A stretch of 14,506 nt of DNA from a virus (lineage: Duplodnaviria > Heunggongvirae > Uroviricota > Caudoviricetes): IMG/VR virus record IMGVR_UViG_2778261446_000005, positions 1 to 14,506 of that record, one strand, 5' to 3'. Shown here piece after piece: positions 1,301 to 8,288 of this stretch. The position numbers and the translations under genes were made by a program. Position 1 is the first letter of the stretch; each line of letters opens with the position of its first letter. Under the pieces are notes generated by a model, which worked only from the letters and a program-made list of their open reading frames with translations, searched no databases and had not been told where the DNA came from.

Positions 1301-1426
1301 TTTGTGTCCCCCCATTTTATGTACGGGGTAATTATAACACATTGAAATATAGTAATATTTGACGTAGATTTCTTTTGATCTATAAGCGATTTTTTAATGC
1401 TTTTAAGTTATAAATACTTGTTTTCA

Positions 1427-2035
1427 TCACCCATCTTGCTGCGGTGCTACTATTGAAAAGTACTCACACCCTTTAGCCCAAATAGTTTTGATAGTTGTCC
1501 AACTGACTGGAACCTTGATTTCGATTCTCCCGCTGCCGTCACAAGTTTCGCAATCATCATCACCAAAGCATTCCGGGCAGCTTATAAACGTAGTTTCTGA
1601 AAATTCACCGGATAGCACACCCTTAGCGCCGTTCTCAGCGGTTAGTTTCTTCGGCACTATAACCCAACCATCCGGAGTTACCGGAGAGTTGCCCGATGGC
1701 TCGTTCAACTTGCAAGTTTGGCTTACAGGTTTGGCTTCCAGTTCTGCTATGCGCTTTTTTGCTGCTTCCAACTCGCCAAGCAGCGCCAAGACGGTAGCCG
1801 GATTGGCTGCGGCGATGAATTCAGCATTGGCCTGCTGTTCCATTTGGAAATCTTCATCGAAACCGCTTTCTGGATGCGCTCCTTCAATTCTGCAAATGGG
1901 AAGATATCCAACAACGTCACGATGAATTAGCGCATCATCACAATTAAATCGGCTCTCTCCATATTCGAGCGACCACACACCACACGTTGCTTTCTCTGCC
2001 TTTTCACGCAGTGCCTGATAGTCAATCTTGCTCAT
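1427..2035 (-). CDS. Ead/Ea22-like family protein (202 aa)
   Basis: Translation contains the motif ...FIAAANPATVLALLGELEAAKKRIAELEA that I recall as characteristic of ead/Ea22-like prophage proteins; C-terminal Cys-rich region (CPECFGDDDCETCDGSG). ATGA start/stop overlap with the upstream gene at 2032..2035. Confidence 0.5.
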   Translation of the reverse strand: MSKIDYQALREKAEKATCGVWSLEYGESRFNCDDALIHRDVVGYLPICRIEGAHPESGFDEDFQMEQQANAEFIAAANPATVLALLGELEAAKKRIAELEAKPVSQTCKLNEPSGNSPVTPDGWVIVPKKLTAENGAKGVLSGEFSETTFISCPECFGDDDCETCDGSGRIEIKVPVSWTTIKTIWAKGCEYFSIVAPQQDG

Positions 2036-2289
2036 TGGTCAGCCTCCTGGCGAAACATCATGATTGTCAGATCGCCTTTGGTTGCAAGGCGCACGGTTGT
2101 TCCTGGTTCGATGCTGGACAGGTCAAACGCATCGTAAAATTCATTTACTGCTTTTTGTCTACGAGACAGCCTTCTGCGTTTGTCCCATTGCTTTAGCGCA
2201 ACGGAGATAAACCACTGTCCCGTTTTGAACATGATGAATAACCACCCCATCAGGGCGAGTCCGGTGTTTAGAATGCCCAGAATGCTCAT
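2032..2289 (-). CDS. Small membrane protein, unknown function (85 aa)
   Basis: ORF from track. N-terminal hydrophobic helix (ILGILNTGLALMGWLFIMF) then a basic segment (KRRRLSRRQK). ATGA overlap with the upstream gene at 2286..2289. Confidence 0.5.
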   Translation of the reverse strand: MSILGILNTGLALMGWLFIMFKTGQWFISVALKQWDKRRRLSRRQKAVNEFYDAFDLSSIEPGTTVRLATKGDLTIMMFRQEADQ

Positions 2290-2660
2290 GACTGCACTCC
2301 CTTGCGAAGCTGGTCGGCTAACTCGTCACATATGTGCGTCAAAGAGCAAAGTTTGATTGATGGATGTTCTCGCATCATCTCCACACCCTGCGCACGTACT
2401 TCAGCCAGAAAAGCGTCGGTGGCTGGGGTTTCCGTGAAGTTGTCCTCCCAACCGTAGTACTCCTGACGACAGAAGTTATTAAATTCCTTCTCCGACTGTT
2501 TAAGCGCCGCATTCTCCGCTGCCAGCGCCGCGCACTTGGCCTCCGCTTCAGCAAATTTACGCACCAGATATTCAGCGTTTGTTTCGTTAACCTTTAAATC
2601 TCGTGGGATGCATTTACCTTTCAGAAAACCATCCATCTCAATTAGTGACATTTGTTTCAT
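2286..2660 (-). CDS. Hypothetical protein with predicted coiled-coil segment (124 aa)
   Basis: ORF from track. ATGA overlap with the upstream gene at 2657..2660. Contains [24 protein letters not shown]. No family recognised. Confidence 0.5.
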
Positions 2661-2821
2661 TTCTTCCCACTCCGCAGCATCGCATTCAGATATTTGTTTT
2701 GATTCACTGATGGAAACGAGTTTCTCTTAAGCAATTCCTCTCTCGATGGCATTGGCTTTACGCGTTGGCGAATAATCATTTCTGCCGGAAGAATGCCGGG
2801 ATTGTATGCAAGTCCTCTCAT
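2657..2821 (-). CDS. Small hypothetical protein (54 aa; track ORF runs to 2974)
   Basis: Track ORF 2657..2974 overlaps the upstream 98-aa gene out of frame. Internal ATG at 2821 is preceded by GAGGA at 7 nt spacing and lies just downstream of the 98-aa gene stop (2832..2834), so I take the short form ([33 protein letters not shown]...). Confidence 0.4.
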
Positions 2822-2831
2822 GGTAAATTCC

Positions 2832-3128
2832 TCAGTCATTACTGATAGCGCCATAGCGTGAGCGGTAATTACGCAGGCGCGGGTCGATATATTCAGGGAA
2901 GTGGGTATATGTGGCTTTGCGGAATGGTCGGATTGATGTCTGGTAAATTCGCTCTCGTTCTTCTTTCTCTGCAAGCCATATACAGTGGCGAAATTCCTTT
3001 TCCTCTTTCGTTTCCTGCGGTAGCGACATTATCAGGTCGTAGTTTTTTCTGAATTTATCCAGCACCTCCGATACGGAATTGCCGGAACAGCGGCGCGGGT
3101 CATCCGCACCATACAGAGGCGCTGGCAT
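2832..3128 (-). CDS. Hypothetical protein (98 aa); possibly an Abc-type anti-RecBCD protein by position and size only
   Basis: ORF from track, AAGGAT SD upstream of ATG at 3128. Sits just downstream of erf-ssb, where P22 carries abc1/abc2; I cannot confirm sequence similarity from memory. Confidence 0.45.
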
Positions 3129-3151
3129 AATGGAATCCTTATTTTGCTAAT

Positions 3152-3535
3152 CTAGAATGGAATTGAATCGTCGTATTCAGGATGATTTTGATGATTGCTA
3201 CTTTGCTGCTGTTGGCTGTTTCCTGAAGCTGCAAATCCAATCTTCGCATTCAGTAATTCAAGAGTGATTGATTGACCATTTTGCCCCTGATAAACATCAA
3301 CCCTGATGTTTTCTCCGGTAATTTCTACAATGCCACCTTCAACAAGAACACTACGGTAGTAATCCGCTTGCGCTCCCGGCTTGGCAAATACAACGGCGCT
3401 GTAGTTTGTCCATTCTTTCTTTTTTGTCTGGCGATCGTAATACTGAACGCCAGCACGGATGTTGAATCCGATATTTTCCCCGGCCTGAAACTCTCTTGCG
3501 GGTTTGTTTAGTCTTACAGTAATCGAATGTGCCAT
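3152..3535 (-). CDS. ssb: Phage single-stranded DNA-binding protein (SSB-like, 127 aa)
   Basis: Internal ATG at 3535 (M31 of track ORF 3152..3625) overlaps the erf stop as TAATG. C-terminus ends ...PEYDDSIPF, the acidic D-D-x-I-P-F tail of bacterial SSBs. Gln/Ser-rich linker before the tail. Confidence 0.6.
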   Translation of the reverse strand: MAHSITVRLNKPAREFQAGENIGFNIRAGVQYYDRQTKKKEWTNYSAVVFAKPGAQADYYRSVLVEGGIVEITGENIRVDVYQGQNGQSITLELLNAKIGFAASGNSQQQQSSNHQNHPEYDDSIPF

Positions 3536-4140
3536 TAAGCAGCCGCTCCTTCTAATTCGTCTCGTCTGATGTTGTAAACGTCCTGCGCTTTGTGCTGCTC
3601 CGGTGTGCCTTCGAGCATCTTCCACGCTTTGGCGAACGCCTGTTTAAGCTCTTCTACGGTGTTTTTCTGCAATGCTGCGTCAGTGAATGCTTTTAGAACC
3701 TGTTCAGGTGTAGGTGATGGTTTTGATTGCTTTGCTGCTGCGTTCTGCTGATGTTTATGCTCGTCGGTATCTGCATCTTTCGCATCATCAATGCCGAACA
3801 AACCATTGAGGCAATACTTGCGTGCATAAGAGCTTGTAGCTCCAGTAACTTGTGCAGAATCCATTCCTTTCTTGCTTTCTTCCTCTCGTGCAAGAGCGGT
3901 TGCCGTATGACTGTTTTCGCCATCGGTAATAGTTGCCGTGGCTTTCACGTAATACCGATCACCAATCAACACAACTTCATCGCTGATTGATAAAAACAGA
4001 CCATTCAGTAACGGCTTAACGCCTTCAAGAATGTCTTCGCAGCTTCTGTATTTATATTTACCGAATGAGTTGTACTGATTCTTTGGCGCATTCAGATTCT
4101 CCTGAATGGCTGCCAGTCTTGCGTAAAATTCTTTGCTCAT
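3535..4140 (-). CDS. erf: Erf-family single-strand annealing recombinase (P22 Erf-like, 201 aa)
   Basis: Translation from the ATG at 4140 begins MSKEFYARLAAIQENLNAPKNQYNSFGKYKYRSCEDILEGVKPLL..., matching my recollection of P22 Erf. Track ORF 3535..4170 begins at an upstream TTG. C-terminal third diverges, as expected for mosaic Erf tails. Confidence 0.8.
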   Translation of the reverse strand: MSKEFYARLAAIQENLNAPKNQYNSFGKYKYRSCEDILEGVKPLLNGLFLSISDEVVLIGDRYYVKATATITDGENSHTATALAREEESKKGMDSAQVTGATSSYARKYCLNGLFGIDDAKDADTDEHKHQQNAAAKQSKPSPTPEQVLKAFTDAALQKNTVEELKQAFAKAWKMLEGTPEQHKAQDVYNIRRDELEGAAA

Positions 4141-4150
4141 ATGTTTGTTC

Positions 4151-4321
4151 TCAGAATGGACATTCCCCAAGGAAATAACGCTGATTTAATACTTCGACTC
4201 GGGACAAATTAAGGCATACCCGCATTCCTTCGCGGTCGCCATTATGGCGATACCAGAGAGCTTTCTGCGTGTACATGCGTCTCTGTAACTTGCTCTCCTT
4301 CACTGTGGTTGCAAGTGACAT
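4151..4321 (-). CDS. Small basic protein (56 aa), arf-like by position
   Basis: Manual translation. ATG at 4321 with strong AAGGAGA SD; stop TGA at 4153..4151, 11 nt before the erf start. MSLATTVKESKLQRRMYTQKALWYRHNG... Lies where P22 has arf, but identity is not verified. Confidence 0.4.
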   Translation of the reverse strand: MSLATTVKESKLQRRMYTQKALWYRHNGDREGMRVCLNLSRVEVLNQRYFLGECPF

Positions 4322-4400
4322 GAATATCTCCTTCGTTGCCGATTAAATCTTTCATCTGACGAATGAATTCTTCGTCTGACCAGTTATCTGTGAAACTCAT
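4242..4400 (-). CDS. Small acidic ORF (52 aa), overlaps the 4151..4321 ORF in another frame
   Basis: Manual translation. ATG at 4400 overlaps the kil-like stop as ATGA, with AGGA SD. MSFTDNWSDEEFIRQMKDLIGNEGD... Overlaps the next ORF by 80 nt, so one of the two may be non-coding. Confidence 0.3.
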   Translation of the reverse strand: MSFTDNWSDEEFIRQMKDLIGNEGDIHVTCNHSEGEQVTETHVHAESSLVSP

Positions 4401-4549
4401 TTCCTGCGATACCACGGAAGGTTGATAGCTGATTTCATCGCTTTATTTGCTTCAAGCCACATTTTTGAATCACCAATAAATCGGGCTATTACTGCTTTGT
4501 TCTGTGCAGCACGAAGCATCTGGTGATTGATGGCTATTTCATTGCGCAT
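4397..4549 (-). CDS. kil: Kil-like small host-killing protein (FtsZ inhibitor family, 50 aa)
   Basis: Manual translation MRNEIAINHQMLRAAQNKAVIARFIGDSKMWLEANKAMKSAINLPWYRRK. The motif IA-FIGD-KM matches what I recall of lambda Kil. GAGG SD. Directly downstream of cIII, as in lambda and P22. Confidence 0.55.
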   Translation of the reverse strand: MRNEIAINHQMLRAAQNKAVIARFIGDSKMWLEANKAMKSAINLPWYRRK

Positions 4550-4665
4550 AATAAGACCTCAACTCTTTTCCATCCGTCACGTAATTTACGGGTGATTCGT
4601 TCAAGTAAAGATTCATTTAGTTGGAAGGCACCCATGCGAGCGCCTCCCGCGATTGCGTAAATCAT
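4534..4665 (-). CDS. cIII: CIII-like protease (FtsH) inhibitor (43 aa)
   Basis: Manual translation MIYAIAGGARMGAFQLNESLLERITRKLRDGWKRVEVLLCAMK. The ESLLERITRKLRDGWKR core matches the lambda CIII amphipathic helix. AAGGAA SD upstream of ATG at 4665. Confidence 0.85.
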   Translation of the reverse strand: MIYAIAGGARMGAFQLNESLLERITRKLRDGWKRVEVLLCAMK

Positions 4666-7637: not shown

Positions 7638-8288
7638 TTAAGGAAGGTTTGCTAGCTTGGCATCAACGACAACGCCAATGATTTTACAGTTCCCATTGAT
7701 TTCAATCATTGGGTATTGTGGATTGAGTGGTTTCAGGAATTTTCTACCGGCATCAATAACTAACTTTTTGAATGTCGCCTCGTTTTCTCCTTCAAGTTTG
7801 GCGACTACCAGCTTTCCATTACGTGGTTCGACTTCTGGGTCGACGAGAATAATCATCCCCTCAGGAATACTCAGTCCTGCCGGGGCAGTCATTGAATCGC
7901 CTTTAACGTCGAGCCAAAAAGAGTCTTCAGAACAATCTACCGTTGTGTCGTACCAGTTATCTATTGCACGCCTATGATATGGCTCTACAGCTTCCATCCA
8001 ACATCCTGCGCTTACCCAACTAATTAGAGGATACGAACCTCTTGGATCATGCCTGCTGTGATAGGCAATGTTTGAAAGACTATCCTCTCCTTTCAACAGG
8101 TAATCAGGGGAGCACTGCAAAGCCTTGGCTAAGGCCAATAGGTTTTCGCCATTGGGCTCAGTTTCAGATCGCTCCCATTGGGAAATAGCAACATTAGACA
8201 CGCCAACCATCTTGCCAAGGGCAGCCTGCCTAATCTTGAGTTCTTTTCTGCGAGCGCGAATACGCTCACCCATCAGTTGTGTATTCAT
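7638..8288 (-). CDS. c2: Prophage repressor, P22 c2 type (CI-like, HTH plus LexA-like S24 autocleavage domain, 216 aa)
   Basis: Translation MNTQLMGERIRARRKELKIRQAALGKMVGVSNVAISQWERSETEPNGENLLALAKALQCSPDYLL... matches my recollection of P22 C2 almost throughout. C-terminal domain has the G-D-S-M and K-L motifs of RecA-cleavable repressors. Divergently oriented to cro. Confidence 0.9.
   Translation of the reverse strand: MNTQLMGERIRARRKELKIRQAALGKMVGVSNVAISQWERSETEPNGENLLALAKALQCSPDYLLKGEDSLSNIAYHSRHDPRGSYPLISWVSAGCWMEAVEPYHRRAIDNWYDTTVDCSEDSFWLDVKGDSMTAPAGLSIPEGMIILVDPEVEPRNGKLVVAKLEGENEATFKKLVIDAGRKFLKPLNPQYPMIEINGNCKIIGVVVDAKLANLP

Follow-up and report, generated by a model that had tools for sequence, protein, structure and literature searches.

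Abc2 and three small genes of known families downstream of erf and ssb in the early operon of a P22/HK97-like prophage

Four small genes downstream of erf and ssb

The viral record IMGVR_UViG_2778261446_000005 (Caudoviricetes) was analysed over a stretch of 14,506 nucleotides (nt), here called the window, in which four small open reading frames (ORFs) follow the recombination genes erf and ssb on the minus strand. A preliminary description, made from the sequence alone, had presented these four ORFs as a tightly coupled cassette of unknown function and had proposed roles as recombination accessories or as inhibitors of host nucleases or defence systems. Their coordinates, their sizes of 98, 54, 124 and 85 amino acids (aa) and their chaining by ATGA or near overlaps into an Ea22-like gene were confirmed, as was the location downstream of erf (Pfam ERF, 2.4e-44) and of an ssb whose product is 94% identical to HK97 gp40. 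All four match protein families at strong E-values in Pfam and PHROGs searches:

2832..3128, minus strand: gene 1, abc2, 98 aa (PF11043, 4.4e-63, full length)
2657..2821, minus strand: gene 2, DUF2737, 54 aa, net basic (PF10930, 3.4e-32)
2286..2660, minus strand: gene 3, EaE/HK97 gp37/Oad2 family, 124 aa, all-helical coiled-coil protein (similarity to HK75_28, HK446 gp27 and P22 EaE)
2032..2289, minus strand: gene 4, DUF4752, 85 aa, single-pass membrane protein (PF15944, 3.9e-41)

Genes 1 and 2 are separated by 10 nt, and the next three junctions, the last one leading into the Ea22-like gene, are ATGA overlaps of 4 nt. The ATG start of gene 2 is nested in a longer ORF with a TTG start. A Shine-Dalgarno-like motif (AAGGA, GAGGA, GGAG, AGGGAG and AGGAGG) lies 7-12 nt 5' of every start.

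The region is very probably the distal part of a recombination (Rec) module, followed by the first three genes of a mosaic "ea" accessory and counter-defence region, within the early-left, PL-type operon of a P22/HK97-like lambdoid prophage of Escherichia coli, so that the four genes would be co-transcribed neighbours and not one machine. It is an ordinary stretch of such an early operon and a fresh instance of known families: DUF2737 and DUF4752 are known families without a recorded function, and the family of gene 3 has one recently characterised member.

Gene 1 and the Rec module

Gene 1 aligns with PF11043 from residue 1 to 98 (profile positions 1-97) at 210 bits, with a cutoff of 25, and matches phrog_656 at 1.2e-56. 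The protein is 94% identical over its full length to Abc2 of phage P22, with residues 1-64 unchanged and Pro68 kept; the differences, a few substitutions and one additional residue, lie in the C-terminal third, for which the structure shows no order. The Abc2 chain of PDB entries 8B1T and 8B1U is matched at 1.8e-57, and the RecC-binding helical region (residues 3-52, to residue 66 in 8B1T/8B1U) is conserved. The label of unknown function was therefore wrong for this gene, and the position that had been likened to the abc1/abc2 site of P22 holds abc2 itself. As in P22, the gene sits after the gene of an annealing protein; in P22 it is preceded by abc1, in the window by the SSB gene.

Abc2 of P22 binds the RecC subunit and modifies RecBCD rather than blocking it; its residues 3-52 are ordered, order reaches residue 66 when the host protein PpiB is bound, Pro68 is engaged by PpiB, and in the favoured model the altered RecBCD serves the phage annealing protein Erf instead of RecA (PMC9836394). 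Since the protein matches P22 Abc2 residue for residue in the part that binds RecC, and E. coli RecBCD was the enzyme in the solved structure, the same mechanism is taken to apply, and gene 1 would act like P22 Abc2, turning RecBCD toward Erf over RecA.

Gam of lambda and gp5.9 of T7 occupy a functionally analogous place, in which RecBCD is neutralised beside the phage recombinase (PMC9836394, PMC12315714). These two proteins are DNA mimics blocking the DNA-binding site, whereas Abc2 binds RecC and modifies the enzyme. Alignment against Abc1, Abc2 and Gam had been proposed as a check, and of these P22 Abc2 matched gene 1. No sequence similarity to Gam or gp5.9 was found among the four genes, the Pfam scans brought up no Gam family, and P22 Abc1 gave nothing below E = 0.28, either when the seven proteins encoded from erf to the Ea22-like gene were compared with it by BLASTP or when it was run by tblastn against the whole window. 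The SSB of the window has no similarity to P22 Abc1, and no resemblance to Arf was found in the window.

The "HK75 type" of Rec module consists of an anti-RecBCD protein, an SSB and an annealing protein and has no nuclease, and HK97 gp40 has been classed as an SSB of type SSB-1b (PMC12315714); the Rec module of the window fits this type. The window contains no Chi site; as 0.29 were expected, this count is uninformative.

In P22, the role of Abc1 has been described as unknown (PMC9836394). Residues 67-94 of its gene product (L005:5471-5755, minus strand) match Pfam Sigma70_r4_2 at 27.0 bits, with a cutoff of 25.7, which suggests a DNA-binding helix-turn-helix at the C-terminus.

Gene 2 and its linkage to abc2

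Gene 2 is matched over its full length by PF10930 at 110.5 bits (cutoff 25), and its product has 11 lysine and arginine residues against 3 aspartate and glutamate residues. HK97 gp38 (93% identical) and P22 orf56 (77% identical) have the same length and position, and HkaI of HK620 is a further relative in the DUF2737 family. The order erf-abc1-abc2-orf56-eaE is found in P22, and HK97, HK75, HK446, Sf101 and ES18 share the order abc2, DUF2737, EaE-like gene. DUF2737 comprises 142 clusters at 90% identity and is under purifying selection (pN/pS 0.18).

Linkage was followed in two sets of viral contigs, both made up mostly of near-identical sequences (96-100% identity). DUF2737 lies downstream of abc2 in 79 of the 79 Abc2-anchored contigs with room for it, out of 80, and abc2 lies directly upstream in all 80 DUF2737-anchored contigs; Erf was present in 51 of the former 80 and in 36 of the latter. 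The pair is kept even where Abc2 is only 63-76% identical, and in the phage collection full-length matches to Abc2 and DUF2737 occur in 225 and 223 records, respectively. A further gene, about 95 aa long, separates the two in 16 of the 80 Abc2-anchored loci, examples being HK446 gp29 (L233:3214-3504, minus strand) and ES18 gp45; the HK446 gp29 type is labelled "replication initiation protein" in RefSeq, and its sole Pfam match is DUF5405.

DUF2737 is also found without abc2, behind modules of the RecT type, namely on contig L092, with a 100% identical DUF2737, and with diverged copies on L123 and L125. The C-terminal core of the family, without a match over the full length, was detected in about 475 other phage records, and none of those sampled appears among the Abc2 hits. 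The sampled records are virulent Guernseyvirinae (Jerseyvirus, Kagunavirus), which carry a shorter branch of DUF2737. Across the alignment of both groups the invariant core is P23, R27, E28, E29, R33, S35, F36, N42, Y44 and L45. The core P-x-P-x-REEL-x-KRNSF...N-x-YLN can be read in gp58 of Salmonella phage SETP3 (L230:3441-3596) and in gp75 of Escherichia phage phiWAO78-1 (L231:3426-3599), where the gene lies among tiny early genes beside NinZ-like and NinH-like genes, with no abc2 nearby. DUF2737 is thus a near-constant neighbour of abc2 that does not depend on Abc2, and its product may be a small basic early protein acting on a conserved host component independently of Abc2.

Gene 3 and the OLD connection

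No Pfam family was assigned to gene 3, for which PHROGs returned several families of unknown function. In BLASTP comparisons its product is 63% identical to HK75 gp28 (7e-56), 44% identical to HK446 gp27 (1e-34) and 62% identical over 65 aa to P22 EaE (4e-24). A preprint of July 2026 describes a protein of HK446, gp27, named Oad2 (OLD anti-defense 2), which binds the P2 OLD nuclease and keeps it from being activated, and relates Oad2 to P22 EaE; an HK75 homologue 54% identical to Oad2 gave no protection against OLD, and a small protein encoded upstream of erf, gp33, triggers OLD (bioRxiv 10.64898/2026.07.10.737580). In the RefSeq records HK446 gp27 and HK75 gp28 each lie directly after DUF2737, and BLASTP gives exactly 54% identity between them; this agreement with the figure in the preprint fixes the two as Oad2 and its homologue.

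With the members of this family (HK446 gp27, HK75 gp28, HK97 gp37 and P22 EaE) gene 3 shares the N-terminal 38 residues, the coiled coil, a conserved block of 16 residues and the ..QLRKG.. end. It likewise follows directly after DUF2737 with an ATGA overlap, an order seen in HK446, HK75, HK97, P22 and ES18. It differs from Oad2 in the absence of a 21-aa coiled-coil segment and in an unrelated C-terminal cassette of its own of about 25 aa. The family is highly diversified, with more than 7,589 clusters at 90% identity among the matches listed, compared to the 142 of DUF2737 and the 205 of DUF4752. Close relatives of gene 3 differ by cassette-like insertions and deletions (indels), and the size of the gene that follows DUF2737 varies between 92 and 301 aa across 158 loci, about 125 of which keep the conserved type of N-terminal start.

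The AlphaFold2 model of gene 3 is elongated, with helices at residues 6-13, 26-67, 79-96, 100-104 and 108-120 (pLDDT 75.5, pTM 0.36). The coiled coil that had been recognised beforehand in the 124-aa protein is consistent with helix 26-67. Foldseek found no structural neighbour for it at E <= 0.001, either in the PDB or among viral models. No fold-based conclusion was drawn for gene 3 or for gene 4, whose models are both elongated, with a pTM of 0.36, and lack a Foldseek match. The PDB sequence search of genes 2 to 4 gave no matches, none of the four genes belongs to a named NCBIfam family, and PADLOC found no defence system in the four proteins, its only hit being a chance one of the coiled-coil type between gene 3 and JetC (E = 0.0027, 13.6 bits). 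The literature on eaE/orf56 and gp37/gp38 yielded no functional report beyond the OLD preprint.

Gene 3 may be a fast-evolving counter-defence protein, in which the variable C-terminal cassette and the coiled-coil indels would set the target specificity. P2 OLD itself is probably not its target, given that HK75 gp28, the characterised protein most closely related to it, is inactive against that nuclease. The earlier proposal that inhibitors of host defence are encoded here gains indirect support for gene 3, through its membership of the Oad2 family.

Gene 4, a membrane protein that assorts independently

Gene 4 is matched over its full length by PF15944 at 139.4 bits (cutoff 27) and by phrog_667. 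Its residues 1-19 have a mean hydropathy of 1.78 and lie within a long predicted helix; they are followed by a basic juxtamembrane stretch, KQWDKRRRLSRRQK, and by a C-terminal part of about 40 non-basic residues. The transmembrane helix of the preliminary description was therefore borne out as an N-terminal one, and its basic tail proved to be only the juxtamembrane stretch. From this stretch and the positive-inside rule the C-terminal part is predicted to be cytoplasmic. The elongated AlphaFold2 model has a helix at residues 3-54 and a low-confidence hairpin at 64-81 (pLDDT 74.7, pTM 0.36), and Foldseek gave no match at E <= 0.001 in viral models and the PDB.

The family is conserved by purifying selection (pN/pS 0.16), and gene 4 is 74-94% identical to the aligned prophage proteins of Citrobacter, Salmonella, Enterobacter, Kluyvera, Klebsiella and E. 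coli. Prophages with DUF4752 occur across the Enterobacterales, ranging from those of Escherichia, Salmonella and Citrobacter to those of Erwinia and Xenorhabdus. An exhaustive profile search of 1.84 billion proteins gave 58 representatives at 50% identity, nearly all of them stand-alone proteins of 40-110 aa; the exceptions are P0377, P0379 and an 867-aa TPR protein. P0377 and P0379 are chimeras, an Ea22 N-terminus with a DUF4752 C-terminus and a DUF4752 N-terminus with DUF4406, and the database protein P0267 (199 aa) is a fusion of DUF2737 with a gene-3-like sequence; the three are consistent with recombination inside these small genes. In the TPR protein (P0394) positions 55-83 of DUF4752 match nine consecutive TPR repeats, with an overall E of 4.5e-9, and we took this as a repeat-driven chance similarity. 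The AlphaFold2 model shows this part of DUF4752 as a low-confidence beta hairpin, which leaves doubt about how the C-terminus really folds.

On 66 DUF4752-anchored contigs, abc2 occurs within 5 kb in 6, and close DUF4752 homologues are rare in the Abc2-anchored loci. At the readable loci among these 66, the gene 5' of DUF4752 ranges from 34 to 276 aa and has many unrelated N-termini, mostly with a ..QLRKGVQS end and an ATGA overlap; the gene on the 3' side is at most of them a variable Ead/Ea22-like gene with a start of the MSxIDKQALRE type, usually MSNIDKQALRE. The codons of ..RKGVQS, AAG GGA GTG CAG TCA TGA, include both the AGGGAG Shine-Dalgarno motif and the DUF4752 start (window 2286-2310, minus strand; loci L086-L151). 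The ..QLRKGVQS end is conserved in otherwise unrelated genes because the module boundary lies upstream of the DUF4752 ribosome-binding site, inside the last codons of the upstream gene. In Erwinia, DUF4752 is located in the early-right region behind the replication genes. Variable neighbours and this early-right position mark DUF4752 as an early-expressed gene that moves on its own. In many Abc2 phages a DUF4752 paralogue of 32% identity lies further down the ea region. A link of DUF4752 to ASCH-domain genes, seen in 10 of the 66 loci, did not hold.

Operon setting and neighbouring genes

The minus-strand order is cIII, kil, gp33-like gene, erf, ssb, abc2, DUF2737, EaE/Oad2-family gene, DUF4752 and Ead/Ea22-like gene. 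The features around the four genes are the following:

7638-8288: cI-like repressor (Pfam)
4534-4665: cIII (Pfam)
4397-4549: Kil (Pfam)
4242..4400, minus strand: gp33-like gene, 52 aa, its ATG overlapping the kil stop (90% identity over 52 aa to HK75_33)
3535..4140, minus strand: erf, single-strand annealing protein, 201 aa with the ATG at 4140 (Pfam ERF; phrog_155)
3152..3535, minus strand: ssb, HK97 gp40 type (SSB-1b), 127 aa, ending in DDSIPF (phrog_44 SSB, 1.7e-29)
1427..2035, minus strand: Ead/Ea22-like gene, 202 aa (PF13935, 4.8e-21), with an ATGA overlap with gene 4

In the wider window, which is the early region of a lambdoid prophage, Pfam matches on the right identify, besides the repressor, a Cro of the P22 type, cII, an O-like protein and a DnaB-like helicase; cIII and Kil lie to the left of the repressor. 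A consensus scan of the minus strand from erf to the Ea22-like gene gave no convincing promoter or terminator, the sole site being a weak terminator-like match inside DUF4752. This result and the lambdoid early-region context place the four genes in one long early-left operon.

Both sides of the reported OLD interplay are represented in the window, the trigger by a gp33 homologue and the inhibitor family by gene 3. The gp33-like protein differs from HK75 gp33 at its C-terminus, which reads AESSLVSP vs AAGVNVSPEGRS. A 56-aa ORF overlapping it in another frame (4151-4321, minus strand), publicly annotated on contig L236, has no similarity to gp33 and was rejected as its homologue. The DDSIPF tip of the SSB aligns with residues DDSNP of HK97 gp40; it resembles the C-terminal tip of E. 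coli SSB that recruits partner proteins. In the Ead/Ea22-like protein the C-terminal segment CPECFGDDDCETCDGSGRIE resembles a CxxC...CxxCxGxG zinc-finger motif. Between 4690 and 5754 (minus strand) a 354-aa ORF very rich in coiled-coil repeats of E, A, K and R has no Pfam family; the gene at the equivalent position in phage HF4s is annotated as similar to Agt of phi80.

Conservation of the gene order

The same order of the four genes is present on contigs L086, L236 and L237. L236 (E. coli, GCA_002549725.1, NOCU01000009.1) matches the window in gene order and sizes throughout, and the length of 201 aa for Erf is also that of the public gene call on the matching contig. On L236 the prophage integrase adjoins the host exonuclease I gene (sbcB), and the 54-aa DUF2737 gene was missed by the gene caller. 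No phage record covers at least 80% of the 1,097-bp four-gene region, and the wider region 1400-4200 is covered to at least 80% in 3 of 5,426 complete E. coli genomes.

ATGA overlaps occur at 58 of 66 DUF4752 starts, at 57 of 66 DUF4752 stops and at 127 of 157 DUF2737 stops. Together with the family matches of all four ORFs and the purifying selection on DUF2737 and DUF4752, this recurrence shows that the chain of small genes is real and no product of chance. Since such overlaps are general at these junctions whatever the neighbour, tight coupling is normal operon architecture here and no sign of shared function. As a foursome the genes do not form a conserved unit; the only pair that is kept together is abc2 and DUF2737, and DUF4752 assorts independently. 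The preliminary description had itself named lack of conservation of the coupled arrangement in related phages as the finding that would speak against its cassette, and the arrangement is not conserved.

Alternative explanations

That the four genes work as one functional cassette, for example as a multi-subunit recombination accessory or an anti-nuclease complex, is very improbable. Its basis would be the tight chain of one 10-nt gap and ATGA overlaps and the recurrence of the order on at least three other contigs, but coverage of the region in phage records and E. coli genomes is as low as given above, DUF4752 accompanies abc2 in 6 of 66 loci and is rare, in its close homologues, at Abc2-anchored loci, and the overlaps are a general property of the junctions of the region, so that co-occurrence largely refutes this explanation. 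A less extreme but still improbable proposal, also made beforehand, is that the DUF4752 protein is a membrane-targeting toxin or a superinfection-exclusion factor. Small early phage membrane proteins often are toxins or exclusion factors, and this one is small, spans the membrane once, has a conserved and presumably cytoplasmic part and is kept across Enterobacterales prophages. It has, however, no similarity to a known exclusion or toxin family in the Pfam, PDB, NCBIfam, PADLOC and fold searches, and it lies deep in the early-left operon without a promoter-like site, whereas sieA and sieB of P22 have promoters of their own; the Erwinia copy behind the replication genes is again in an early lytic context. 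Its place in the N-antiterminated early-left operon and the lack of a separate promoter-like site speak against the gene being expressed in the lysogen, and DUF4752 would instead be a membrane-tethered early protein made only in lytic growth or on induction.

It is unlikely, although somewhat less so, that DUF2737 is a dedicated cofactor of Abc2 and the missing piece of RecBCD hijacking. Adjacency in 79 of 79 and 80 of 80 loci, whichever recombinase is present, the nearly equal numbers of full-length records, the persistence of the pair at 63-76% identity of Abc2 and the strong purifying selection on DUF2737 would all be expected of a cofactor. They are offset by the contigs with DUF2737 and no Abc2 (L092, L123 and L125), by the core in about 475 further records, those sampled being virulent Guernseyvirinae outside the Abc2 hits, by the intervening gene in ES18 and HK446, and by overlap coupling with the downstream gene and not with abc2; moreover, the complex of RecBCD, Abc2 and PpiB was purified and solved without DUF2737 (PMC9836394). 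The most probable of these alternatives, although still less likely than not, is that gene 3 encodes an active inhibitor of a nuclease of the OLD family (ABC ATPase-TOPRIM), countering the alarm raised by the phage's own gp33-bearing Rec module. Family membership with Oad2, the gp33 homologue in the same window and the extreme diversification of the family, which fits an arms race, speak for it; against it stand the failure of the nearest tested relative, HK75 gp28, to inhibit P2 OLD, the missing 21-aa coiled-coil segment with a C-terminal cassette unlike that of Oad2, and the fact that Oad2-type activity was shown for a single member, HK446 gp27, in one preprint.

Several points weigh against the reading preferred here, of a Rec module followed by accessory genes that are independent modules. 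The linkage of abc2 and DUF2737 may in part be due to shared ancestry rather than selection, since the sets are dominated by near-identical DNA. PDB sequence, NCBIfam, PADLOC and fold searches found no demonstrated function for DUF2737 or DUF4752, for which the literature gave one annotation mention only. Pairwise physical interaction may occur, for example between DUF2737 and the gene 3 protein, whose genes overlap by ATGA. Finally, the Oad2 assignment depends on one preprint, and with HK75 gp28 inactive against P2 OLD the membership of gene 3 in the family does not imply anti-OLD activity.

Implications

The "cassette of unknown function" turns out to contain a textbook gene, abc2, and the 124-aa protein, labelled just "hypothetical" in the records consulted, is now placed in the newly reported Oad2 family of OLD inhibitors, a family which has diversified at defined cassettes that mark where specificity probably resides. 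In temperate phages DUF2737 hardly ever parts from Abc2, and yet it is also found without it, including in virulent phages, which makes it a well-defined candidate for functional work. DUF4752 is an independently assorting and strongly conserved small membrane protein of Enterobacterales prophages.

A wider interpretation, which we consider doubtful, sees the region as a counter-defence island in which every small gene after the recombinase neutralises a different host alarm arising from the manipulation of RecBCD. Gene 3 would then be an Oad2 allele tuned to an OLD-family nuclease other than that of P2, the DUF2737 core a peptide inhibitor of a conserved host factor and DUF4752 a membrane-tethered inhibitor of a membrane-associated defence effector. 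Were this true, DUF2737, DUF4752 or both would represent a new family of anti-defence proteins, and an anti-defence role of either would extend the proposed counter-defence hotspot beside phage recombination modules.

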